Assembly: GCF_030384885.1 (NCBI RefSeq)
Contig: NZ_CP128614.1
Direction: 5' to 3' (one strand)
Source of the DNA: Escherichia coli
GTDB taxonomy: Bacteria; Pseudomonadota; Gammaproteobacteria; Enterobacterales; Enterobacteriaceae
DNA length: 64,000 nt
Positions 14,980-64,000 of this stretch are shown here, piece by piece. Positions within the stretch are counted from its first letter, which is position 1. The number at the start of each line of letters is the position of its first letter. A model generated the notes under the pieces. That model made no database searches, was not told the DNA's origin, and saw nothing but the letters and a program-made list of their open reading frames with translations. Made by a program: the position numbers and the translations under genes.

Positions 14980-15414
14980 ATGTCTGTTATCCTTGAGCAC
15001 ATTAGCAACAAGCCTTACGAAATGGCACCTTTTTTCAGTGATTTACTGAGCTGTGGAGTGATGAGTCCGTGCGCCGGGCATGAAGATAATGAATTAAATT
15101 TGCATGAATATGTAGTCCGTAACCGCCCCTCAACCTTCTTTGTCAGGGCGGCGGGCCTCAGTATGATCAATGCCGGTATCAATGATGGCGCTATTCTGGT
15201 TGTGGATCGGTCTTTAACGGCACGACACGGCTCTATCGTCGTTGCGCTGGTGGATGGAGAGTTCACGGTAAAGATCTTACACACGTATCCTGAGCTGCTT
15301 TTGATGCCTTCTAATCCAGCCTATAAGCCGATACGTGTAAATCCCGAATCCCTTGAGATATGGGGCGTCGTCACCTTTGCACTGAATCAGTTTAGCCATG
15401 TACATGCACGTTGA
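14980..15414 (+). CDS. umuD: UmuD/MucA-like SOS mutagenesis protein (S24 LexA-like self-cleaving peptidase)
   Basis: 144-aa ORF with a Cys-Gly cleavage dipeptide near residue 25 and an S24 serine motif (GLSMINAG). Confidence 0.8.
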   Translation: MSVILEHISNKPYEMAPFFSDLLSCGVMSPCAGHEDNELNLHEYVVRNRPSTFFVRAAGLSMINAGINDGAILVVDRSLTARHGSIVVALVDGEFTVKILHTYPELLLMPSNPAYKPIRVNPESLEIWGVVTFALNQFSHVHAR

Positions 15415-19158: not shown

Positions 19159-19169
19159 AAAGTTACTTT
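19159..19169. repeat. Palindrome AAAGTTACTTT, copy b (overlaps the DsbC-like stop)
   Basis: Read directly (GGAAAAGTTACTTTTGCGC). Confidence 0.6.
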
Positions 19170-29239: not shown

Positions 29240-29832
29240 AGACCGTTCTCCTTTTCTGATGCGGTTATGATGGCATACAAAAAAAAGGTTAGAGCTCGTA
29301 TAGCATGGTCGTTTTTATGTTGAAAAGGACGGAAAAGGAGTGCTGACTAAGAAGATAGTCTCGGTGATGGAAAGATCATCCATCTTGCACATTGTGAAAA
29401 ATCCGGTGTAACAAAAACATGGTTTTATCGAATATCTAAAAGCAAATATTGCTTTGAAAACAGGTGTATTAAGAGCTGAAAAAAATCATCACCAGTAACG
29501 CTGTTTCTATATTTCAAAGAAGGAATAGCTAAGGATCAAAGAAGCGAACTTAGGCAAGAATATAAAATATATTAATTGAAAGCGATTAAGAAGTCGTCAT
29601 GCATAGAAGGTTTTAGAGAACCTAAGTAGTTTTACGTTTTCAACAGAAAAAAAGGTGAACATTTTTTGGAACGAAGAAAGACTGTATAAAGAAAAATCAA
29701 ATTATATCTTTACTTGTCAAGAGTTAATATTTAAGTTGTAACTAATATTTGATTGTAAAGCAAACAACAGAATTTGACTTAAGTCAATATTTAGATTCAG
29801 ACAAGGCAAGTTTCGCGATATCTTTTTTAAAT

Positions 29833-46975: not shown

Positions 46976-48160
46976 TCATGACTGTCCCTTGTTCATCTTA
47001 TCAGCATGCTTACGCAGGTACTCTTTCAGGTCAGCATGAGCGTTGATGATATCGTTCATTTCATCATTGGTCAGAACAAGCGTGTAAGTATCAGTACTGA
47101 CAGATTCACCTTCTTTAAGCTTGGCTTCTTCAGCAATACGTTCAAAAATCGGGATCGCGGTGTCTGCAATGACGGTCACAGTCTTTTTGTTCAGAACGCT
47201 GGACATGGAAGGTGCTTTACCTGCCGGGTTCTGTTTAGGAGCGCTGTCCTTTGGAGCTGGAGCCGGTTCCTGTACCGGTGGCGTATCCAGCGTCTCCGTA
47301 TTGCTTTCATCGTTCAGTTGATCCGGTACCGGGGTGTTATCGGTAGTATCATCTGCCGGTTGCTCAGCACCGATGTTTTCCGGAGTCTGCGGATCTGCCA
47401 TGCGCTCTTCTACCTTGGCAGCTTTGACGAATTTCAGCGTGTTTTTCGTCGCCTTGCCATAGATGGAGATCGCTTTGTTGATGTTATCTACCGCATCCTC
47501 ACCGCTGTACATATACTCGTCCAGTGCAACGTACATGCTCACCTGATCGCTCACAAGCATGGTCTGTAGTTCAGAAGGCAGGTCCAGTACGCGAACCATC
47601 TGGCGAAGATGCTGCTCTGATTTACCACGTTTTTTTGCCAGTTCCGCAAAGGTCTTAGGCTCTTCTTTATCTTCAACCAGACGCTTAATTGAAAGCGCTT
47701 CAGCTACGACAGACAGCGCCAGGTTGGAGTTGCCGGTCAGGGTGAAGAGTTCTGCTTTTGAAGCGCTACCGCGAAACTCTTCGCAGCGAATACGAGTAAT
47801 GCGTTCACGCCCTTCTGCTTCCAGCTGGCGGTTTGCAATAGCGATGGAACGGATACGGCAAGCCCCCTGACGCAGTACAGGTACGCCATTAACCATCTGA
47901 ACAACGATAGGCGTCACGCTGAACGGGTCTTCCATGTAGGCATCGGCCAGGCTGTTCAGGTGTTCCACAACGTGAGGCATTGAATAGTAGAGCTCGCCCA
48001 TACCGGCCGTGCGGGTGTTAAAGCCTTCCTGCTCTACAACAACCGAAGGGTCAATGATAAGGCCGTTGCCTTTACGGGCACCGTTACCAGTGCGTTCCAG
48101 GTAACCACGAAGGCTGATTTCGTTGCTGTTGTTTTTTACTTCAGTTTCGATTGCGGACAT
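46976..48160 (-). CDS. ParB/KorB-like protein (ParB N-terminal nuclease-like domain, HTH, Pro/Glu-rich linker)
   Basis: 394-aa ORF; ParB-box-like stretch (…VPVLRQGACRIRSIAIANRQ…) and a low-complexity acidic/proline linker; one palindrome copy lies ~90 bp upstream of the start. Confidence 0.5.
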   Translation of the reverse strand: MSAIETEVKNNSNEISLRGYLERTGNGARKGNGLIIDPSVVVEQEGFNTRTAGMGELYYSMPHVVEHLNSLADAYMEDPFSVTPIVVQMVNGVPVLRQGACRIRSIAIANRQLEAEGRERITRIRCEEFRGSASKAELFTLTGNSNLALSVVAEALSIKRLVEDKEEPKTFAELAKKRGKSEQHLRQMVRVLDLPSELQTMLVSDQVSMYVALDEYMYSGEDAVDNINKAISIYGKATKNTLKFVKAAKVEERMADPQTPENIGAEQPADDTTDNTPVPDQLNDESNTETLDTPPVQEPAPAPKDSAPKQNPAGKAPSMSSVLNKKTVTVIADTAIPIFERIAEEAKLKEGESVSTDTYTLVLTNDEMNDIINAHADLKEYLRKHADKMNKGQS

Positions 48161-48250: not shown

Positions 48251-48261
48251 AAAGTAACTTT
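48251..48261. repeat. Palindrome AAAGTAACTTT, copy j (upstream of ParB-like gene)
   Basis: Read directly (GAAAAAGTAACTTTTTTT). Confidence 0.6.
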
Positions 48262-48376: not shown

Positions 48377-48387
48377 AAAGTTACTTT
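48377..48387. repeat. Palindrome AAAGTTACTTT, copy k (intergenic)
   Basis: Read directly (GAAAAGTTACTTTTCCGG). Confidence 0.6.
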
Positions 48388-51970: not shown

Positions 51971-53309
51971 CATAAGCGCTAACTTAAGGGTTGAACCATC
52001 TGAAGAATGCGACGCCTCGGTGCCTCGTTAAGACGATGCCTCGCGTTCTTCAATTGCGTTTTGTAGGCTGTCAGGGATACTGTCCCACGAATGGCCACCT
52101 GTAAGCTCCAGATGACCATTTTTGTTATTCTCCACAACGAGTTAGTTCTTCTTTTCGGATCCGGCACTTCTGGGGGGGAAATCCAGCGATGGCTGGATTA
52201 TGTCGTCAATTAAAAATGCGGCGAGTAGATTAGCAAATATCCACGCTTTCGCGAGTTCAGGTTCCTTTGCACGCAAAGCATCCAGGTGCAGCAAACTTTT
52301 GAGCCGCTTAAAAGCCAGTTCAATTTGCCATCGCAGACGGTAACAATCAGCCACTTGCTCTGCTGAATATTCATCTTCCGGTAATGATGTTAGCAATAGC
52401 ACATGGCCCGCTGCTTCCAGCGTTTCCGCCTGAACTACTCGTCCTTTTCGACGATTCTCGCTGAGCAGTCGGGTTTTACTGATTAATGCTTTTTCGGGAG
52501 GAAGTGATACGGCAATGAGACGTGCCGGAAAGGGAGCTCCGGCTTTTTTATTACCTGAATTGCCTATCATTACAGTGGTTTCACCGTTCTTACCGCAATC
52601 CAGCCCGCGCAGAAAACCCATCATGTCAAAGCGCATTCCTTCTGCAGTTAACCAGCGCAATCCTCGCCAGTGAACCCGGACGATATAATCAGCTTCTCCA
52701 AAAGCAAGTGAGCGGATACATTCGGGACGCGAACCGAATCCCCGGTCAGCAATGCGTATCTCGTCTGCCGTTTGCGCAAATCGGTCCAGCCGTTCAGCGT
52801 CTCTGCTGTCGGTTAGCTCAAAATCAGTGAACTGACAGGTATGAGGATCATATCCCATATGTAGTCGCCATTCAGCGCTGCCGCCCCCGGGCGCACTGAT
52901 TGCTGTTCCATCGACAAGACGCAATCTCTTTCCGCTTGTACAACCCGTAACTGCGGCGCGTACAGCAAGTGTTTGTGCGGCAAGTATGCCAAACCAGTCG
53001 GCGGCATTCCGCAGCCGCTTCAGGAGAGCCACGTCAGATAATGTTGCAACGTCATGGAGCTGAGCCCATGCAGTGACTTCACGTAATGACATCCCCCCGG
53101 GGCCGTAAGCCAGCCCCAGACGTAGCAGAGTTGCAGCATCACGAATTTCGCGGCGGCGGGTTAGAGCCCCGGCATTACGTGCCGAAGTATCCAGTTCTTC
53201 GGGCTTACCAATATGGGCCAGAATTGCTGACCAGTTATCGTGAGAGTAATTCATCGGCACGTTAAATCATATCAGGCGTAATACCACAACCCTTAAGTTA
53301 GCGCTTATG
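51971..53309 (-). mobile_element. IS186: IS186 (IS4 family) with 11-bp target-site duplication GGGGTTGCCCC
   Basis: 23-bp terminal inverted repeats CATAAGCGCTAACTTAAGGGTTG at both ends; direct repeats GGGGTTGCCCC at 51960-51970 and 53310-53320. Confidence 0.9.
52142..53254 (-). CDS. IS186 transposase
   Basis: Translation MNYSHDNWSAILAHIGKPEELDTSARNAGALTRRREIRD… matching IS186 transposase as recalled. Confidence 0.9.
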   Translation of the reverse strand: MNYSHDNWSAILAHIGKPEELDTSARNAGALTRRREIRDAATLLRLGLAYGPGGMSLREVTAWAQLHDVATLSDVALLKRLRNAADWFGILAAQTLAVRAAVTGCTSGKRLRLVDGTAISAPGGGSAEWRLHMGYDPHTCQFTDFELTDSRDAERLDRFAQTADEIRIADRGFGSRPECIRSLAFGEADYIVRVHWRGLRWLTAEGMRFDMMGFLRGLDCGKNGETTVMIGNSGNKKAGAPFPARLIAVSLPPEKALISKTRLLSENRRKGRVVQAETLEAAGHVLLLTSLPEDEYSAEQVADCYRLRWQIELAFKRLKSLLHLDALRAKEPELAKAWIFANLLAAFLIDDIIQPSLDFPPRSAGSEKKN

Positions 53310-53332
53310 GGGGTTGCCCCCCTCTTTGTCAG

Positions 53333-53548
53333 CTACTTACCGGATTCGTAGGCCAGGATAGCAAATACCTCCCTTGTTCCGTCTTTCATCCGCAACTCGC
53401 AAAGCGAGTTTCGTGTGAGCCAGGTGAATATCAACAGCGTTAAACAAACTATTAATATGCACAAAACAATGGGTTGGTTCGGCATTTTCATGGCCTTCTT
53501 CTCCTTGCATTTAAGCAGGCAAGAGGCTACGCTGTGTGTGACTAGCAT
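53333..53548 (-). CDS. Small membrane protein between IS186 and IS150
   Basis: 71-aa hydrophobic ORF; its terminator hairpin is the IS186 target. Confidence 0.3.
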
Positions 53549-53589
53549 ACAGGGGCCTCGGGTTGTACTGACCCCAGAAAGTTGGACAG

Positions 53590-54441
53590 TTAAACACGAG
53601 GCATATAGGTCTGATTCCGATATTCAATTGGAGTCAGACCTTTTAATTTCAGGCTAATTCTTCTGCTGTTGTAGTATTCAATATATTCCGTAACAGCATC
53701 CTTCAGCTCGCTTATATTACTGAACTCATCAAGATAAAAACACTCCGACTTTAAGGTTCCAAAGAAACACTCCACCACAGCATTATCCAGACAATTGCCT
53801 TTTCTGGACATGCTTTGTTTAATACCATGTTCTTTAAGGATATTTTGATATCTTCTCATACGATACTGCCATCCCTGGTCAGAGTGCAGAACAGGATGCT
53901 CGTGAGGATTAAGCTTTTTGAATGCCTGATCGAGCATATTCTCGACCATGTTCATCACTGGTCTTTCCGAAAGGCTGTAAGAAATAACTTCGTTGTTGAA
54001 GAGATCTATTACTGGAGACAAATACAGCTTGCGCCCATTGACTGCAAATTCAGTAACATCGGTAACCCACTTCTCGTTTGGCCGCGTAGCCTTGAAATCT
54101 CTTTGGAGAACATTGGGGGCGGTTTGCCCTACCTCTCCTCTGTAAGAGCGGTATCGCTTGACCTTAATCGCTGCCTTCAGTGAGAGGATTCCCATCAGGC
54201 GCTGAACAGCTTTATGGTTAATCTGTTTCCCTTCTCGATGAAGAGACAGCGTTACCCTACGGTATCCGTATCGGCCTCTATTCTCATGATAAATCTCACC
54301 AATACGCTTTTTAACGTCCGCATACTTGTCAGGCTTGCTGAGAGCCTTTAGATGGTAATAAAACGTACTGCGCGGTATCTCCGCAGCCCTGAGAAGCTCA
54401 TCAAGAGGATAAAACTGCCTTAGCTCGTTGAGTACTTTCAC
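53590..54441 (-). CDS. insK: IS150 OrfB (InsK-like DDE integrase domain; OrfAB made by -1 frameshift)
   Basis: 283-aa ORF overlapping orfA by 4 bp in the -1 frame. Confidence 0.9.
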
Positions 54442-54959
54442 TTTTTCGTGGGATGAGCTAAGGCTTTCAGCTTTTTTAGATACACAAGCCGCGTTTCAAG
54501 AAATCGAACTTGCCTTTCAAGATCCTCAATGCGTCGGTCTTTTGACAGCTCCAATGCTGATGCCGCTTTTTCTGGATCAACTGATATTGCAATGTTTCTT
54601 TTGGTGCCAATCTTGAGCGCGCGTAAACCAGCTTCTCCGCGCTCTTCATAAACCTTCAGCCACCTGGCTACAGAACCACTACCAGCAAGCATAAAGTGAG
54701 CAGCAGCCTGATTAAGGGACATGTGCTGCTCGATCACCGCTTTCACGACCTTAATACGCAACTCAGGATCAGCACTAACACCTTTAGGTTTGGGAATTAA
54801 ACCTTTTTCTCCATGTTTTTCATAGAGGGCAACCCATGTCCTGACCTGGGTTCGGGGGACACCAAAACGTGCCGAGATGATCCTGTAACCATCATCAGTA
54901 GTGAAGTAGTGATTCACGACTTCAAGGCGCTTTTCAAAAGGGTATTTTGGCTTTGACAT
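54438..54959 (-). CDS. insJ: IS150 OrfA (InsJ-like, HTH)
   Basis: 173-aa ORF MSKPKYPFEKRLEVVNHYFTTDDGYRIISARFGVPRTQVRTWVALYEKHG…. Confidence 0.9.
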   Translation of the reverse strand: MSKPKYPFEKRLEVVNHYFTTDDGYRIISARFGVPRTQVRTWVALYEKHGEKGLIPKPKGVSADPELRIKVVKAVIEQHMSLNQAAAHFMLAGSGSVARWLKVYEERGEAGLRALKIGTKRNIAISVDPEKAASALELSKDRRIEDLERQVRFLETRLVYLKKLKALAHPTKK

Positions 54960-56112: not shown

Positions 56113-56394
56113 TTACTCTTTTTCCTGCATAGCGGCTTTTTCAGCCCGGGTGGCCAGGCGAGCATTTCCGAAAGGTTCACGGACAAGCAGGGGCTTCTCC
56201 TTCTTCCAGCCCCTGATAGCCGTTTCTCCAAAACGACGTGGTGCATTGCCGTTCCAGCGAGCAATCACATGATTATCATGAATTTCTATAATGACAACGG
56301 GGTGGACAATGACCGTTGTAATGGTGGTATTTCCCATTTTGGTACGGGTTACAGACCAAACCTGCATCCCGGATTCCAGCTGGCTGATTTTCAT
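56113..56394 (-). CDS. Hypothetical protein
   Basis: 93-aa ORF. Confidence 0.35.
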   Translation of the reverse strand: MKISQLESGMQVWSVTRTKMGNTTITTVIVHPVVIIEIHDNHVIARWNGNAPRRFGETAIRGWKKEKPLLVREPFGNARLATRAEKAAMQEKE

Positions 56395-57080: not shown

Positions 57081-57302
57081 GATTAACTCTCCAGATTATG
57101 TGGAATCATTATAACAACTGGCATCCCGCCACAAATAACCTGAGAAAAATTCTTTGAAATATTCCTATATATAAGGAATTACAGTCGGAAAAGAAACGAT
57201 GAAATAGCGCCGACCGCTTAAAATCGATAAATTAAAATGGACGGCACTGGAATGAAAAACTGAAAGTAGTAAGACCGTAATTATCCTTCACGGATGTAAG
57301 CT

Positions 57303-57503
57303 TTATAAGAGGAGTACTGGCAAAGCTTTGCCAAGTACTTCGGCGGTTGTGTCTACGATTTTACGGATGTCATCGATCTGCGAAGGCTTATTCAACACCA
57401 CCGTAAAAAGCTCTCCTTCGTTATCAGCCTGCTCGCAGTTTCCGTATCGGCTCCCGTCGTACAGCTGCACAATACGTGACATAGAAGACTTTGTTTGTTT
57501 CAT
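57303..57503 (-). CDS. Hypothetical small protein
   Basis: 66-aa ORF just downstream of paralog 1. Confidence 0.3.
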   Translation of the reverse strand: MKQTKSSMSRIVQLYDGSRYGNCEQADNEGELFTVVLNKPSQIDDIRKIVDTTAEVLGKALPVLLL

Positions 57504-57542
57504 GGCTTTGCACCTGCTTTTAGGCAGTTTGGTTACTGGTTA

Positions 57543-57767
57543 TCAGAAGCTGGTTTCATGCGCTTCCGGCTGGGACACGAACTGGTATTTGACGCCGCCA
57601 GGCACACCTACTGCTTCGGCAATAGAGTCGCAAAGCCGCGATAAATCATTTAGTGTCATCGGATATTCAATATCTACAGAATATAAAGCACCTGCATTTT
57701 CAGCATCTTCGATGTTTTTATACTGGGCACTAAATATAGCAATGGTCTGAATTTCGTGGTTATGCAT
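57543..57767 (-). CDS. Small conserved protein, paralog 1 (shares …YPMTLNDLSRLCDSIAEAVGVPGG… with 62732..62971)
   Basis: 74-aa ORF clearly homologous to the 79-aa ORF at 62732..62971. Confidence 0.5.
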   Translation of the reverse strand: MHNHEIQTIAIFSAQYKNIEDAENAGALYSVDIEYPMTLNDLSRLCDSIAEAVGVPGGVKYQFVSQPEAHETSF

Positions 57768-58165
57768 GAACCGGTCCTTATTAAATTATAAAAGCCACCC
57801 GAGAGTGGCCTGAGTTGAAACTTAAATCTGTGAAGTATTTTTGAGAGATTTTTTGCGATCCAGATGCCGGGCAACAATGGTTCCGATAACAAGTAGCATG
57901 ATGACCGCACTGAAGAAGGTGCTGTCAGGGACGCCCTGGAAAAAATCACTGAAACTGTAAACAATAAAAATCAATGCGCAAAAATAGAAAACGATACGAA
58001 CATAAGGGGTAAAAAACATTTTCATCGGTTGCCTTCCATTCAGGGAGAATTCTCAGTAATTACATCACACCTGAAGAGAAACTATTTTCGTATAAATGAG
58101 CATTTTCGACATATCAGAGGGGGGGTTTACTCATAAATGAGGTAGTAAGGGTCACACTTGAGGTG

Positions 58166-58176
58166 AAAGTTACTTT
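58166..58176. repeat. Palindrome AAAGTTACTTT, copy l (intergenic)
   Basis: Read directly (GTGAAAGTTACTTTCCTGG). Confidence 0.6.
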
Positions 58177-58204
58177 CCTGGCTGCGAACGAACTATCTCA
58201 AATG

Positions 58205-58498
58205 TTAGAGGTGTGCGTTCGCCTTGAGAGCCTCATGCCCTGAGGAGCTCAACTTGAGCCGATAGTATAAACCTGGCTCCAGATGGCTTGCTGGCTGGCA
58301 TAACTCCACGAGGCCGAGCCGGAACAGGACCGGAGAGCTCCTGCACGTCACATCATCAGGATTCCCCATAAACGTACGCCGTTCTCTGGCCCGTCTGAAA
58401 TTGCCAGAGATATCATAGACCGTGCCGGATGCCATCCGTCGTAACACGTAAATCTGTGCCATTGTAAGCTTCTGGGCGGAACTGCTTAAACCTGACAT
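58205..58498 (-). CDS. Hypothetical protein
   Basis: 97-aa ORF. Confidence 0.3.
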   Translation of the reverse strand: MSGLSSSAQKLTMAQIYVLRRMASGTVYDISGNFRRARERRTFMGNPDDVTCRSSPVLFRLGLVELCQPASHLEPGLYYRLKLSSSGHEALKANAHL

Positions 58499-58577
58499 AC
58501 CTTCCCCTCCTTATATAAAACAATCCGCCAGCAGCTCGACTGGCGGACAATGTTTGACTGGCAACAGCAAGGACATA

Positions 58578-59069
58578 CTATTTAGTGACAAGTTTGATCT
58601 TGGTTTCACTCATTCGAAGTCGAAACTCCTGAAAACCCTGCTCTACCGCTAACTCCAGCCACTCAACGGGAATGGTATAGCTACAATCAGACCCACCCAA
58701 AGCGGCATCACAAGCGTAATCCCAGTCCTCATCCAGTTTTGGATTCATCCCCTGGGCGTAAGCCACAGTATCGCGGGATGCGGGAGAGCCCTCAAGCTCA
58801 GCATTAGTGATCAGGTATACACCATGACTGTGCGCGAGAAGCACTTTTGGCACCAGATGTGTGCTGGCAATTTTTGAGGATGAGGGAAAGAAAACCCTAC
58901 CAGCTTTACGCGCCTCTTCTTCAGTCTGTCCCTCAGCGTTAAGGAGGGCTCCCCCCGGATAGCATGCCGGGTCATAGATCTGATCTGCGGTGACCGAAAA
59001 CGTTTTTGCGGTGCGAATTTCTTCGATCAGTTTATTAATATCCGCCATTTCAAATACGAGAGTGGTCAC
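58578..59069 (-). CDS. Hypothetical protein
   Basis: 163-aa ORF. Confidence 0.45.
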   Translation of the reverse strand: MTTLVFEMADINKLIEEIRTAKTFSVTADQIYDPACYPGGALLNAEGQTEEEARKAGRVFFPSSSKIASTHLVPKVLLAHSHGVYLITNAELEGSPASRDTVAYAQGMNPKLDEDWDYACDAALGGSDCSYTIPVEWLELAVEQGFQEFRLRMSETKIKLVTK

Positions 59070-59073
59070 AGGC

Positions 59074-59421
59074 TTACTCTCCCTCTTCAGTGGACAACAT
59101 CAGATACTTTGTTGCCAGCAGAAGCTCTCCCACATCCTTGAGGGACAATTCAGCTTTGCCTTCTACGGCAAGCTGCAAGCGCTGTCGAATTGCATGAACA
59201 GAATCTGAAGATAAAGATGCCATTTTGCGCAAAACGGCATTAGCCTTTTCTACAGCAGGATACAGAATTTCTGAGTTGGTATTATCTTCGTCATTATCAA
59301 AGATAATTTCAGAATCCATATTGATGTTATCTTCAAGCCAGCTTGAAAGCACTTCAAGTAATGACATCACCTTTTCAATTTGCATATCGCCTCCTCTGTT
59401 AATGTGAAACAAATATAACAA
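59074..59421 (-). CDS. Hypothetical acidic protein
   Basis: 115-aa ORF 4 bp downstream of the previous gene's start. Confidence 0.4.
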   Translation of the reverse strand: MLYLFHINRGGDMQIEKVMSLLEVLSSWLEDNINMDSEIIFDNDEDNTNSEILYPAVEKANAVLRKMASLSSDSVHAIRQRLQLAVEGKAELSLKDVGELLLATKYLMLSTEEGE

Positions 59422-59900
59422 AGTGGCTTACCCGGCTAATAACCTGAGCAGAAAGTTTTCGCACTTTGTTTGAAAACAACTTTTCTGCTCAGGTTAATGT
59501 TAAAGTCGCTGTGTAAAAGATAAAGGGCACTAAAGATGATTTAAGCATCAAACAGACTAAATCGGATTCCGTCTTTTATATCGCTTTTAAAATAGAATGA
59601 ATGAAATATAAATTTAGCGTTTATGATTGAACGCTGTAGAGGTTGATTTATCCAGTGATATTCAGTTTGGGGCCTTAAAAAGGTTTTATTTTGGATTCGA
59701 ATTACAAAGGGAGCACCGACATTTTTCTGGGGGCTCCCGCAGAGAAAAAGCGGTGAGGCTATGAAGACGAAGAGGAGGTATTCGACGAAATACTGTATGG
59801 CCACAGGAGAGCTTCAGCACCCATATCCTGCCGTCTCGCTCGCCTGTAATGATTTCAACATGTACAACGTCATACCACGTAGTTGTATTTCTCACTTTGT

Positions 59901-60221
59901 TTATGCTTCCTGACACCGTGTGAACGCAATCTTCGTCTGGATGCGTTCATAGATGGAAAACTGCCTTTCAATGGAACCGGCATTAGACAGTAATTCATGA
60001 AGCTCAGCAGAGTCTGTATCGGGAACGATAGCTACAGAAACTCCATATCTCCGTCCAATTTTGATTAGGTGCGCAAGCTGTTCTTTTTCGGATTCTGTGA
60101 GCATTGCCAGATCTCTTCCGGACACCTGCTCTATAAACGAACCAAGGTTTTTGGGAAAAAAGGGTTCGGCATCAGAGTTATGTGCTGGGCGCGTCTGCGG
60201 CTTATCGAAGCTATTGGGCAT
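59901..60221 (-). CDS. Hypothetical protein
   Basis: 106-aa ORF. Confidence 0.4.
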   Translation of the reverse strand: MPNSFDKPQTRPAHNSDAEPFFPKNLGSFIEQVSGRDLAMLTESEKEQLAHLIKIGRRYGVSVAIVPDTDSAELHELLSNAGSIERQFSIYERIQTKIAFTRCQEA

Positions 60222-60372
60222 GAATAGAACCTATACAGTTAGAGAACTGGAGAATGGATAAAGACTCTATGAAAATCAGTTGTGCTACACTCGAATGCTA
60301 ATCAAGCTTTATGATGGCTTTAGTAGGGATGGCCGTCAACTTAAACCGATAAGAAGGGAGCCATTTATCGTT

Positions 60373-60383
60373 AAAGTAACTTT
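60373..60383. repeat. Palindrome AAAGTAACTTT, copy m (intergenic)
   Basis: Read directly (TTAAAGTAACTTTCCCGG). Confidence 0.6.
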
Positions 60384-60400
60384 CCCGGATGATGCTCTTT

Positions 60401-60628
60401 TTACGAAATAAGTTTCTCACACTCCTGTATAAGAGTCGCCCTGGAACGAGATCGACTGGCTTTGCTTAATGAAGAGCGTAGTTGATGTTCATCAACCCCA
60501 TCAGCGATAAACTGACCGATTTTTGTTTCAAGCCGCTGCATTGCCTCGTAAAGCTTGGCATCCGCATTATTTTTAAGAAACCTCAGTATATAATCAGCAA
60601 TAATTTGGACGGGAGTGAACTTATACAT
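60401..60628 (-). CDS. Hypothetical small protein
   Basis: 75-aa ORF; a palindrome copy lies just past its stop. Confidence 0.35.
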   Translation of the reverse strand: MYKFTPVQIIADYILRFLKNNADAKLYEAMQRLETKIGQFIADGVDEHQLRSSLSKASRSRSRATLIQECEKLIS

Positions 60629-60855
60629 TATGTATCCTTAAGACGTTGTGTTAAATGATTCAAAAAAATTTATAACCAGACGTAAATTATTATACATAAG
60701 TAAGCACTTTAGCTAACAAGCTGGAGGAGTGAATTTCGGTTAGCAACTATATTTTAGAAGCTGATTGCTGAATAGACAAAGCCCGGCTTACCGGGCATTC
60801 ATTTAATTAGATGCTAGAAATCTGACCCGTCGTCTGACTTTTATTCCAGGCAGAG

Positions 60856-61467
60856 TTAGGAACTAATAATGATGGCCTGGTCAGTTTGAGGAAGCCGGTT
60901 TCCTCTGATAAATGCAGGGTGGTTTAAACGAGAAGAAGAAATGGTCATCGCCAGAAATGTCTCTTCACGCGAACGCAGAAATTCCCCCCATGAATAGGTT
61001 TCCCATACGTCGTGAGAAAGGTCGGATTCCTTTATGTACCGGGATTGCATTGTTGGCTCAAAATCGACAGGGGCTAAACTGTCATAGGATGGATGAACAC
61101 GGTACCCCAATCCCTCCTCCGTCTGATGGTATGCATGTGCCAAAAGGACATCGTGGGAGACCAGGTCATAGTCGTTGTCCTGAACGAGCGTTTTTACGGT
61201 ATGACTAATTTCCCCAAAGCCGTCTATTTCCCAGAGCGTTATCATTGTGAACTCAGCTAAAGTTCGTGGGCTCTTTACCAGAAAGCCATTTAATGCTCGT
61301 CGCCCCTTCAGCATGCCAACGTGGTAGGTCTTGTTGGGATAGGGTTTCATTGCCACCAGCGAATCAGCTTTAAGCTCAAGTGACAATTCAGGGACAGACA
61401 CGGACATGAGAGTACACTTGTTTTTCATATGGTGAAGAATACGTGGCACAAGATGCAGATACATCAT
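60856..61467 (-). CDS. Hypothetical protein
   Basis: 203-aa ORF. Confidence 0.45.
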   Translation of the reverse strand: MMYLHLVPRILHHMKNKCTLMSVSVPELSLELKADSLVAMKPYPNKTYHVGMLKGRRALNGFLVKSPRTLAEFTMITLWEIDGFGEISHTVKTLVQDNDYDLVSHDVLLAHAYHQTEEGLGYRVHPSYDSLAPVDFEPTMQSRYIKESDLSHDVWETYSWGEFLRSREETFLAMTISSSRLNHPAFIRGNRLPQTDQAIIISS

Positions 61468-61578
61468 TTTCTCCTTTTATGGATATAACTGGCAGATCCT
61501 CAGCAGCATCAAAATAGTTAATAGACTTTTTTAATTGGTTAACCACTGTTGATTGACTTGTTTTATGTCTCTGAGAAA

Positions 61579-62145
61579 TTATTCGTTTTGTTTCTGTTCG
61601 TTATACTGCTCAAACCAGAAGACGACCGGTTTTACTACAATATGAAGCAAACCAAAACGTTCTGCGGTACGGAAATTCACGCTATATGCGCGAGCCCGTT
61701 CAACCTGTTTGGTAATTTCATTTCTCATTCCTTCAACACTAAAAGCTCCTTTAAAAAGGTTGCAGGGAGCGCATGATGGAAATAAGTTTTCTATTGCATG
61801 CAGTTCAGGGTGCATAACCTTACCCGTACTTCGGGCAACATGAGTTACGCCGCTGCCGACCGGGGCTCTCACCAGTTCAAAGTCGCGTCGAACAGGCTCA
61901 ACATGATCGGCATGCCACCCTTTTTCAGGAAGCTTGCAACCACAATAGGCACAACGCCCCCCAAATTTCATTCGCAGCTCAGCTCGCTGTATTTTAGAGA
62001 TCTTATTTTTAGGTTTTGAGAACCTACCATCAGGTGATTCCGCTTTGGATAACTTTGCTGAGGGCTCAGGTAACTCAACTAAATTCCCGTTGATATTTAT
62101 CACCTTGACCATATCATTTTCCGCCTTTACTAATCTCACGGGCAC
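61579..62145 (-). CDS. HNH endonuclease
   Basis: 188-aa ORF with Cys pairs and HNH core (CAYCGCKL…HADHVEP…ENLFPSCAPCN). Confidence 0.6.
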   Translation of the reverse strand: MPVRLVKAENDMVKVININGNLVELPEPSAKLSKAESPDGRFSKPKNKISKIQRAELRMKFGGRCAYCGCKLPEKGWHADHVEPVRRDFELVRAPVGSGVTHVARSTGKVMHPELHAIENLFPSCAPCNLFKGAFSVEGMRNEITKQVERARAYSVNFRTAERFGLLHIVVKPVVFWFEQYNEQKQNE

Positions 62146-62172
62146 AGGAGCTGGCTTAAGTAACCGCTGAAG

Positions 62173-62361
62173 TTAACAGCCACTGACTGCCTCTACCCAG
62201 ACCTTCTGTTTATACTCAATAGGCCACCCCTCTTTATCTGCCCGGATGACGCAATCATTTACCGTGGTGCGTGACCGGATACGAACATCAAGCGGAAGCG
62301 AATCGTTATCCACACGAGCCTGTGCCTCATTTAAAATGCGTAAAAACATCTCTTTGGTCAT
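62173..62361 (-). CDS. Hypothetical small protein
   Basis: 62-aa ORF translationally coupled to the upstream ORF. Confidence 0.3.
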   Translation of the reverse strand: MTKEMFLRILNEAQARVDNDSLPLDVRIRSRTTVNDCVIRADKEGWPIEYKQKVWVEAVSGC

Positions 62362-62669
62362 TCAGATACCCCCTCAACTTTGCGAATTTTGATCAGATGA
62401 GGGCGATTCAGTTTACAAAGTTGTTCTGTCGCTTCATCAATCGAATTGAACCGATGAGCCTCTTCGATATTTAAAGTCCAGTATTTCGCTTTCCCTTCTC
62501 CCAGATCGGACTCAAAATAATTTCGCTTTACATCCATTTTTTTAGGCCTGCCATTTATCTTGACGACATTATGTCTGTCATCAAAAAGAAATTCGTCCCC
62601 CTCAAAAGTGATTAATACAAATGGCCCCTCAGGCTTGGAAGTCCGGGGACTTCCCATTTTCAAAGTCAT
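62358..62669 (-). CDS. Hypothetical protein
   Basis: 103-aa ORF; overlaps the next small ORF (62173..62361) by 4 bp. Confidence 0.4.
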   Translation of the reverse strand: MTLKMGSPRTSKPEGPFVLITFEGDEFLFDDRHNVVKINGRPKKMDVKRNYFESDLGEGKAKYWTLNIEEAHRFNSIDEATEQLCKLNRPHLIKIRKVEGVSE

Positions 62670-62731
62670 ACTTCAGCCTCTCGATAGAACTCATGAAACC
62701 TCAAATTAAAATGGACTCACACCACACTGAT

Positions 62732-62971
62732 TCAGTATTCCTCCTGAACCCCATTAGGCTCTGTTGTGATTTCATATTTAATACCGCCAGGTGCTCCCAC
62801 AGCGTCCGCGACCGACTCACACAGCAGCGAGAGATCGTTGAGGGTCATTGGGTGTTCAATGTCCAGCGTGAAGAGTTTCCCGGCTTGCTTGGCGGCTGTC
62901 TTGTCAGCATGTTCAGCATTAAAAAGGTATACGGTGTGTTTTTCCTGAGCGGGGGTATTTTGATTTTGCAT
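62732..62971 (-). CDS. Small conserved protein, paralog 2
   Basis: 79-aa ORF homologous to 57543..57767 (…HPMTLNDLSLLCESVADAVGAPGG…). Confidence 0.5.
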   Translation of the reverse strand: MQNQNTPAQEKHTVYLFNAEHADKTAAKQAGKLFTLDIEHPMTLNDLSLLCESVADAVGAPGGIKYEITTEPNGVQEEY

Positions 62972-63103: not shown

Positions 63104-63114
63104 AAAGTTACTTT
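63104..63114. repeat. Palindrome AAAGTTACTTT, copy n (upstream of paralog 2)
   Basis: Read directly (TTAAAGTTACTTTTCTGG). Confidence 0.6.
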
Positions 63115-63220
63115 TCTGGATGCAGCAACGCTTGGACATGATGTCCACATTACATCACGATCAAAGCTAAGTTTTTTTTGTATAACCCCTTCATTTTCGT
63201 GTGTTTCGCGTTTCAGACGC

Positions 63221-63997
63221 TTATACGACCTGCCTGACCATCCTCATCAGAAGGCGGTTTAACAGTCCTTTCGCTGTCGGGCGATTGCTATCGACATAGT
63301 AAAAACCTGTTTTGGTCGTACCGTGAGCACTGCTCAGCACCCTCAGTTCCCAGATAACGTCACGGATAACGCCGCCATTTTCTGGCTTAAGGCATTCAGA
63401 TAAATGGCGCATGAAACGAGCTCTTACGGCACGGTAATAGCGGAACTCCTCTGGCTGGTTAGTATTTTCTTTCACCCGGAGTCGCTGGTTACACAGAGTT
63501 AGAACTGCATCCATCATTCCCGCCTTCAGCTTCGCCTGGATCGCACCTTGTTGCTGTTCCCTCTCACCTTCGAGTAACGTTAAGATTCTTTCTCCGAGTG
63601 CCGTCTTGTTGTGTACGTGCAACTGTACACAGGCAGCTACGCATGCCCAGAATCTGAACTTTTTTATCTGTCCACGCAATTTCCGGGCTACAACCTGACG
63701 GTATGCAGTATCGCTGAGTATTTTAAAACGCCGACTGGCAACCAGCTCTGGAAGCGACACTCTTTCGCCTATCCCCAGGCGGGAAAAGGTTTGTCCCCGT
63801 TGTGCGAGACGATGATAGACAGCGCCCTTCCCTTTTGAAATTCGGACCGCGCCATAACGAAGAAGATACTGAGCAGCAGTCGTTGGAGTAAACTCACCGT
63901 CAGCGATGCTCTGGCGTAACCCGTCGTATTCATGCCAGATAATCCAGGACGCCGTATCTTCTTCAACAGTCAGCTCATCCTCTTCCTCGAATGCCAC
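63221..63997 (-). CDS. Hypothetical protein (may be N-terminally incomplete at the window edge)
   Basis: 258-aa ORF whose Met sits 3 bp from the window end. Confidence 0.4.
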   Translation of the reverse strand: MAFEEEDELTVEEDTASWIIWHEYDGLRQSIADGEFTPTTAAQYLLRYGAVRISKGKGAVYHRLAQRGQTFSRLGIGERVSLPELVASRRFKILSDTAYRQVVARKLRGQIKKFRFWACVAACVQLHVHNKTALGERILTLLEGEREQQQGAIQAKLKAGMMDAVLTLCNQRLRVKENTNQPEEFRYYRAVRARFMRHLSECLKPENGGVIRDVIWELRVLSSAHGTTKTGFYYVDSNRPTAKGLLNRLLMRMVRQVV

Positions 63998-64000
63998 GAC

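Follow-up and report, generated by a model that had tools for sequence, protein, structure and literature searches.

A repeated palindrome and a family of small acidic proteins in the backbone of IncHI2 plasmids

Two small paralogous genes in the backbone of an Escherichia coli IncHI2 plasmid, each reported to lie near a copy of the same palindrome, raise the question of whether they are governed by an operator of their own and act, like leading-region or anti-defence gene families, in the establishment of the plasmid, of which a first-pass annotation had felt reminded. The window analysed here is a stretch of 64,000 nucleotides (contig NZ_CP128614.1 of assembly GCF_030384885.1), and the genes encode acidic proteins of 79 and 74 amino acid residues (p79, positions 62732..62971, and p74, 57543..57767, both on the minus strand). 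They are indeed paralogs, and a third, more distant relative (p66) follows p74. The 11-base palindrome AAAGTNACTTT is not a private operator of these genes, because 46 copies of it were found in 204 kb of plasmid DNA, in front of many unrelated units. Within the IncH lineage it is a functional and conserved cis-element rather than a signal dedicated to the paralogs, and it is probably a global control site of the plasmid. This element and its plausible partner of the ParB family, apparently undescribed in the literature searched, constitute the more interesting result; the genes of p79, p74 and p66 are real, but uncharacterised backbone genes of this sort are commonplace in a plasmid group that has been sequenced so often.

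In the window an exact match to AAAGTNACTTT occurs at 17 places; these extend from 16.7 to 63.1 kb, and the resistance region is free of them. The expectation is about 2.9 even if one mismatch is allowed, and 0 shuffled sequences reached 17; for the examined 204 kb of the 274-kb IncHI2 plasmid base composition predicts 0.3 copies instead of 46. It is by far the commonest palindrome of the 5-N-5 type, and in 8 of the 17 cases the match continues to AAAAGTNACTTTT. In a subset CCRG is appended at the end that faces away from the downstream gene, which orients these copies with transcription. Ten copies out of 17 are fully intergenic, against 19% of non-coding DNA (P = 3e-4), and the distance from an intergenic copy to the start codon downstream of it is typically 60–220 nt. 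Five copies lie within genes and three between convergent gene ends. The latter (16694, 18258 and 21252, at umuC/dsbA and two other pairs) are upstream of no annotated gene, and the first of them is kept in the IncHI1 plasmid R27 (122053). A promoter-operator role does not explain the copies at convergent ends.

For p79 the proposed position of the palindrome upstream of the gene was confirmed: a copy on the plus strand (63104..63119, core 63104-63114, AAAGTTACTTT with a TCTGG extension) precedes its ATG codon by about 133 nt. The copy at 58166..58181 (plus strand, core 58166-58176, AAAGTTACTTT followed by CCTGG) heads another gene, encoding a 67-residue protein TM67 with its ATG codon 141 nt away, so that p74 comes only second, after a hairpin. 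One more copy (60373..60388, core 60373-60383, plus strand) lies 152 nt upstream of a 106-residue open reading frame (ORF, 59901-60221), and two (48251-48261 and 48377-48387, plus strand) are upstream of a ParB-like gene, corresponding to R27 copies at 92231 and 92113. The remaining exact matches outside the convergent ends are at 19159, 28164, 30783, 31224, 31709, 35132, 36570, 38300 and 43202. No sigma-70 consensus promoter adjoins the copies at 63104 or 58166, and promoter-like matches in this region are no commoner than in shuffled sequences; a sigma-70-like pair of hexamers (60339-60311) was found after the copy at 60373.

Positional orthologs in R27 were identified for 13 of the 17 copies. 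Those of the sites at 58166 and 63104 (R27 85552 and 72184, respectively) have flanks of 20% and 18% identity, that is, near the paralogs the surrounding DNA of IncHI2 and R27 is at the random level with the palindrome intact, and pairwise alignment of IncHI1 and IncHI2 intergenic DNA is uninformative except for the palindrome. What survives of the supposed shared operator is a shared upstream cis-element conserved in R27, but not a dedicated one. Distant loci contain 4–7 copies per 13–16 kb, and the Klebsiella pneumoniae IncHI1B/IncFIB plasmid pNDM-TJ03 (locus L015) contains 13 in 31 kb; the palindrome is absent from one 14-kb IncC region examined. The many unrelated transcription units preceded by it include the trhR operon, the traH/mobI operon and the ParB-like gene. 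The sequence of the motif was not found in the searchable literature. Since the plasmid encodes a Tus homolog, Tus/Ter sites were considered and compared by eye, and this idea was rejected: Ter sites are asymmetric and share only GTAACT with the palindrome.

The kinship of p79 and p74 is not a matter of chance. BLASTP aligns them without gaps with 32 identities in 64 positions (50%), 78% positives and an E-value of 2e-26, and tblastn of either protein over the whole window finds just the other copy (E about 1e-21). Both are strongly acidic (isoelectric point 4.6 and net charge −7 for p79, the first gene after a DndC-like gene; 4.4 and −8 for p74). That further small ORFs follow on the same strand also proved right, and the one after p74, p66 (66 residues, 57303..57503, minus strand), itself belongs to the family. 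For p66 hhalign gave a probability of 82% with single sequences and 97.7% (E 2e-12) between profiles, reciprocal matches of hidden Markov models (HMMs) agree, and a homolog of p66 occupies the same position in another locus (L005, E 5e-11). The three-gene unit begins with TM67 (57822..58025, minus strand), a basic protein with two hydrophobic stretches that may be read as transmembrane segments. A terminator-like hairpin followed by a T-run (57792..57811, minus strand) separates TM67 from p74; IncHI1 has a hairpin with a different stem sequence at the same spot (locus L008, about 15062-15085).

Identity to the IncHI1 orthologs amounts to 68% for p79, 80% for p74, 48% for p66 and 28% for TM67. 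The ratio of nonsynonymous to synonymous substitution rates (dN/dS) is 0.29 for p79, and p74 shows dN of 0.12 with saturated dS. The p79 and p74 genes are real and evolve under purifying selection. An AlphaFold2 model of p79 (pLDDT 77) has the element order beta-alpha-beta-alpha-beta, and the AlphaFold database model of p74 has the same fold (rank 3); p79, p74 and p66 make up a three-member family of small alpha/beta proteins. A conserved Cys of the family is not kept in one of its most distant relatives (P0044) or in the p66 branch. By tblastn the family was registered in 1299 plasmid records of PLSDB, typically at two places per record; most of them have both copies, with identities of 95% or more in IncHI2 and 60–80% in IncHI1. 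Its distribution is restricted to IncHI1, IncHI2 and a few relatives.

Expression of these genes was assessed from the microarray values published by Gibert and colleagues for every ORF of R27 (PMC7366339 Table S4). RefSeq gene counts between IS10 (R0085), IS1 (R0094/95) and corA (R0096) give exactly R0086–R0093, and because of these counts R0091 corresponds to TM68 (the ortholog of TM67), R0092 to the ortholog of p74 and R0093 to that of p66. At 25 °C their signals rose from 221, 576 and 302 in R27 to 1179, 7103 and 4327 in the htdA mutant, i.e. 5.3-, 12.3- and 14.4-fold, with no change at 37 °C. R0092 gives a sixfold stronger signal than R0091, despite the hairpin and T-run between the TM67 and p74 genes. 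R0071–R0073, which the same way of counting equates with the DndC-like gene, a gene for 154 residues and the p79 ortholog, were activated in the mutant 8.8-, 14.9- and 7.2-fold. In the same data set the increase is 11-fold for traI and 13-fold for trhH, so that the orthologs of the paralogs respond comparably (PMC7366339 Table S4). Thus, as far as gene-order mapping and IncHI1 donor cultures allow one to judge, the R27 orthologs are expressed and co-regulated with conjugation, and the possibility that these ORFs are silent, named in the first-pass annotation as an argument against the module, found no support in a microarray signal with 5- to 14-fold derepression.

A candidate for the protein that recognizes the palindrome is encoded in the window itself. 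The gene at 46976..48160 (minus strand) specifies an orphan ParB-family helix-turn-helix (HTH) protein of 394 residues, which matches a ParB-like PHROG (1.6e-21), Pfam HTH_ParB (1.5e-5) and, in the PDB, the DNA-binding domain of Caulobacter ParB (1.6e-4). Its ParB-type N-terminal motifs GFNTRTAG and RQGxCRxR are invariant across IncHI2, R27 and pNDM-TJ03, where the homolog is 35% identical. Its accession is WP_001272970, and its counterpart in R27 is presumably R0104. There is no adjacent ParA gene. Upstream of the ParB-like gene the palindrome occurs twice in IncHI2, twice in R27 and six times in pNDM-TJ03, where the six copies of AAAAGTAACTTTT are gathered within 760 bp (L015 14123-14881, about 120.4-121.2 kb of the record). 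A type IV-A CRISPR-Cas cluster with Cas6 and a DinG-like helicase is situated 3–9 kb downstream in the latter plasmid.

Such an arrangement resembles the KorB-OB system of the IncP plasmid RK2 with its partners KorA and TrbA (PMC11790492; bioRxiv 10.64898/2026.05.27.728120): a short palindrome is repeated in many copies along the backbone, some of them at promoters and others far from promoters or within genes, and a plasmid-encoded ParB-family HTH protein has copies upstream of its own gene. The two systems differ in motif, which is unrelated (AAAAGTNACTTTT here against TTTAGCSGCTAAA), and in number of sites, roughly four times larger in IncHI; the IncHI ParB-like gene has no adjacent ParA/IncC partner, its product is a putative binder, and the genes headed by the palindrome are also under TrhR/TrhY-HtdA control. 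BisD-bisS of ICEclc can be likened to it as well, being a ParB-like clamp of a conjugative element that uses parS-like sites to act on distant transfer-competence promoters (bioRxiv 10.1101/2024.09.16.613209). According to that study, BisD recognises two bisS sites and has BisC as an activator partner. For IncHI the sites number about fifty, and neither an activator domain nor a partner has been identified. By analogy with these systems one can assume that the ParB-like protein binds the palindrome, and within the overall scheme given below we consider this assumption and its opposite evenly balanced.

The strongest competitor of the ParB-like protein is the TrhR/TrhY-HtdA circuit or another IncHI regulator, for which the palindrome might serve as a target. 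HtdA controls most R27 genes “directly or indirectly”, and 139 of 181 expressed genes respond to its loss, which is comparable with the plasmid-wide spread of the motif; the R27 transcriptome study names no DNA target for HtdA or for TrhR/TrhY (PMC7366339). Copies are found upstream of trhR and traH/mobI in both IncHI2 and R27, and along R27 the fold change shows a step upwards behind the copies at R0067, R0072 and R0091. Nevertheless, the trhF promoter region of the F operon, which is the standard TrhR/TrhY-dependent, HtdA-repressed reporter and shows a 27-fold response to HtdA, has no palindrome in IncHI2 or R27 even with two mismatches. This region comprises 29240-29832 in the window and 110222-110834 in R27, its response is among the largest listed for R27, and the neighbouring trhR and traH promoter regions have one copy each. 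Two genes with upstream copies, R0104 and R0113, are nearly HtdA-independent, and copies within genes or at convergent ends do not fit easily with an activator that is bound at promoters. Because the trhF promoter lacks a copy and some palindrome-preceded genes almost ignore HtdA, a simple TrhR/TrhY box is unlikely, and we consider this explanation as a whole rather less probable than binding of the ParB-like protein, though a serious one.

Searches for known relatives were of little help in assigning a function to the small proteins themselves. Pfam gave no family match to p79 even at E 10, PHROG and NCBIfam none to p74, p79 or p66, and PADLOC none to p74 or p79 (p66 was not run); a PDB sequence search with the family returned nothing below E 0.1, phage genomes contained no match, and the fold has no neighbours outside the family and is not common with any characterised inhibitor. 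A word-indexed search of 5.8 billion proteins yielded 32 matches and an exhaustive HMM search of 1.84 billion representatives yielded 22, all from the family alone and mainly truncated or frameshifted copies. The p66 branch and TM67 are equally narrow (18 matches for TM67). Homology and structure searches thus revealed no known family, PDB entry or outside fold. By general appearance the proteins of this family resemble the small acidic anti-defence proteins Ocr, ArdA and many anti-CRISPRs of mobile elements: they are small, negatively charged (strongly so in p79 and p74) and free of enzymatic motifs, belong to a narrow and fast-evolving family, and are encoded on a conjugative plasmid close to genes for methyltransferase, ParB-like and HNH proteins. 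They differ from them in having neither sequence, profile nor fold similarity to these proteins.

The gene context is more informative. Upstream of p79 lies the gene of a DndC-like protein of the PAPS-reductase family, whose C-terminal part occupies 63221..64000 (minus strand) and which runs off the window; the complete protein of 794 residues matches PADLOC DndC with E 4e-38 and Pfam PAPS_reduct with 3.7e-5. In IncHI1/2 and in the loci L003 and L005–L007 such a gene is followed by a family member, either immediately or with one gene in between. The two most distant relatives (P0043 and P0044, 27–38% identical to p79) were traced to contigs, in which a PAPS-reductase family gene for about 800 residues is followed by a TM67 homolog and then by the family member. 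In L005–L007 a 68-residue protein of the p66 branch comes after the family member, and TM67 homologs at the same position in L003 and L005 are clear by eye. Because the P0043 and P0044 contigs and L005–L007 show such an order, the ancestral arrangement can be reconstructed as DndC-like gene, membrane protein, paralog A and paralog B. In IncHI1/2 it is p79 that has stayed behind the DndC-like gene; TM67-p74-p66 comes only after some 5 kb with genes for an HNH endonuclease, DUF6012 and DUF3085 proteins and a number of hypothetical products. Relatives of the DndC-like protein are present in 2442 plasmid records, including IncC (about 51% identity) and plasmids of Pseudomonas, Vibrio and Burkholderia, always as a solitary gene whose DndC-like product has a long extension at the C-terminus. 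IncC was considered as a wider home of the module and rejected: the DndC-like gene is there, but no family member, TM67 or palindrome was detected in the 14-kb region. The partners DndA, DndB, DndD and DndE gave no PADLOC match among the proteins scanned, namely p74, p79, HNH, DUF6012, DUF3085 and the ParB-like protein.

With this constant neighbour the small proteins might be accessory subunits or regulators of the DndC-like enzyme. Instead of attacking host defence directly, they would bring an activity that modifies DNA or nucleotides to its place or hold it in check. The presence of a family member after the DndC-like gene, of about 800 residues, in every lineage examined, the quality of the DndC match (E 4e-38) and joint derepression of R0071–R0073 in R27 speak for such a partnership. 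It is difficult to reconcile with the IncC protein, which is 51% identical and is followed by neither a family member nor a TM67 homolog, with the location of the IncHI1/2 TM67-p74-p66 cassette some 5 kb away behind its own palindrome, with loss of the conserved Cys in P0044 and the p66 branch, and with the lack of Dnd components among the neighbours scanned by PADLOC. On balance this partnership seems improbable.

Even less probable, in our opinion, is that TM67-p74-p66 forms a self-contained membrane module (for example a toxin acting in the membrane and its protein antidotes, or a complex anchored there) serving plasmid maintenance or the mating apparatus, with p79 as a spare copy of the antidote. 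The order of a membrane protein followed by two soluble paralogs is fixed from IncHI2 to distant loci, the sixfold higher R0092 signal means that the soluble proteins would exceed the membrane one, and Hok-type and RelE/ParE modules are encoded nearby in IncHI1. Against that, no toxin-antitoxin family was matched in NCBIfam, Pfam or PADLOC, TM67 evolves fast (28% identity between IncHI1 and IncHI2), and p79 occurs without an adjoining membrane gene. The notion that the similarity of the paralogs and the placement of the motif are accidental, or that the ORFs are not genes, has only their small size in its favour and can be dismissed in view of the E-value of 2e-26, purifying selection, conserved synteny, the R27 microarray signal and the motif statistics.

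Whether the module belongs to a leading region depends on its position relative to the origin of transfer (oriT). The presumed oriT is the intergenic gap between trhR and mobI (about 31.2-31.9 kb), and the module is 25–32 kb away from it, past the relaxase operon, in a block that spans distances of 11–32 kb from oriT. Genes at 42.3-48.2 kb, at 55.3-64 kb and in about 13 kb beyond the window are all on one strand and point to oriT; this co-orientation conforms to the pattern of F leading genes only if transfer starts rightwards. No Rfam family matched 42-64 kb, and no search aimed at Frpo-like hairpins was made. A known precedent for small establishment genes under a repeated control element is the CUP-repeat regulon in the leading region of the IncN plasmid pKM101, where ardA, ardB and the ccg genes are controlled by ArdK/ArdR. 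A CUP repeat spans several hundred bp and contains a promoter. Common to both cases are small genes of an establishment region, presumed as such in IncHI, each after a repeated element, with paralogous small genes among them; the IncHI repeat differs as a palindrome of 11–13 bp that is embedded in unrelated intergenic DNA and is not confined to one region.

Taken together, these data can be accommodated in the following scheme. The ancestral cassette would have consisted of a membrane protein, paralog A and paralog B, p79 being an extra copy that stayed beside the DndC-like gene in IncHI1 and IncHI2. Both units would be transcribed together with the transfer genes, within the HtdA / TrhR-TrhY regulon, each starting downstream of one copy of the plasmid-wide 11–13 bp cis-element AAAAGTNACTTTT. 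For the orphan ParB-family HTH protein the palindrome may serve as a loading site or operator, as KorB-OB of IncP and BisD-bisS of ICEclc suggest by analogy, and p79, p74 and p66 presumably are not enzymes but proteins that bind a partner. Their likeliest role would be to inhibit or modulate a host or plasmid factor during transfer and establishment, i.e. anti-defence or establishment. The combination of a ParB-family site with partner-binding proteins of transfer or establishment is the reading that we favour, tentatively and with slightly less than even expectation; an anti-defence function within it is possible, yet on the doubtful side.

Several observations weigh against this scheme. The link between the ParB-like protein and the palindrome is circumstantial: other ParB-like proteins exist on IncHI plasmids (two tblastn places per record), other regulators are available (TrhR, TrhY, HtdA and one annotated in the AC operon), and dependence on HtdA varies among the genes that have the palindrome in front (2.6-fold for R0104 and 1.4-fold for R0113). 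The R27 values were obtained with donor cultures and not with new transconjugants, and the R-numbers were assigned by gene order on an IncHI1 plasmid, which is not the plasmid of the window. No statement on the polarity of IncHI oriT transfer was found in the literature searched, so early entry of the module into the recipient is conjectural. Sequence and profile comparisons with the known anti-defence families ArdA, ArdB/KlcA, Ocr and Acr gave no match for p79, p74 or p66, and acidity and small size are weak indicators of molecular function.

As to the plasmid setting, the window represents the IncHI2 backbone, and a representative record is typed as IncHI2A with a MOBH relaxase and MPF_F. 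The stretch at 57-64 kb matches 1032 plasmid records of PLSDB, 589 of them with at least 99% identity; almost without exception these are conjugative plasmids of large size from Escherichia, Salmonella, Enterobacter and Klebsiella. According to the annotation of the representative IncHI2A record overlaid on the window, the resistance region (1-13 kb) is followed by umuDC, dsbA and the transfer genes trhF-trhH-trhG, by the regulator genes trhR and trhY (29833-31147, minus strand), and on the plus strand up to 42 kb by mobI/traH, the MobH relaxase gene (33129-36281), traD/traG and the rest of the operon. From 42.3 kb to the end of the window and beyond extend mostly hypothetical backbone genes of the minus strand, and the genes of the paralogs sit inside this run. 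It is interrupted solely at 48.2-55 kb by three ORFs of the plus strand and two inserted insertion sequence (IS) elements. The transposase genes of the IS4 and IS3 families, which break the co-oriented block, are at 52142-54959; the reference record has IS150 nearby instead. The segment 57000-64000 contains no IS in the window. Since each of the 20 best-matching PLSDB plasmids has a different IS (IS1, IS3, IS21/IS100, IS66, ISVsa5) in the equivalent segment, it looks like an insertion hot spot; in one PLSDB record IS1 is inserted within a 115-residue ORF.

The gap upstream of this ORF (59074-59421) contains a perfect 15-bp inverted repeat with a 27-nt spacer (59440-59496, TAACCTGAGCAGAAA ... 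TTTCTGCTCAGGTTA), and a related half-site was noticed at 57136-57149. The HNH endonuclease gene between the two paralog units (61579-62145) matches PHROG 2118 with E 1.7e-55, and its product weakly resembles HNH proteins of the retron/Septu PtuB type; more HNH genes are dispersed along the plasmid backbone. A hypothetical gene for 93 residues (56113-56394) has the PLSDB RGI label “Brucella suis mprF, 100% identity”, which looks spurious as a resistance annotation. The wider neighbourhood encodes orphan DNA methyltransferases, Hok, RelE/ParE, Lar-like and GmrSD-like proteins and has the general flavour of plasmid establishment regions; no characterised anti-defence gene was found there.

If the scheme is extended to the whole lineage, IncH plasmids (IncHI1, IncHI2 and the Klebsiella pNDM-MAR type) would have an undescribed ParB-clamp network, in which a loader of the R27 R0104 family acts at about fifty AAAAGTNACTTTT sites and, together with TrhR/TrhY-HtdA, gates most backbone operons; it would also deliver p79, p74 and p66, which would then form a novel class of small acidic proteins for establishment or anti-defence. 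This generalization is speculative, and we would sooner expect it to fail than to hold in full. A hypothetical paralog pair on a well-sequenced plasmid backbone is ordinary by itself. The conserved and countable palindrome with a candidate ParB-family binder, on the other hand, makes the question of the DNA target of HtdA directly testable, and p79, p74 and p66 provide a compact, conserved and co-regulated three-gene set, amenable to deletion and to transfer tests in defence-carrying hosts. Both concern IncHI plasmids, which rank among the main vehicles of resistance to multiple drugs, to colistin and to carbapenems in Salmonella, E. coli, Enterobacter and Klebsiella.

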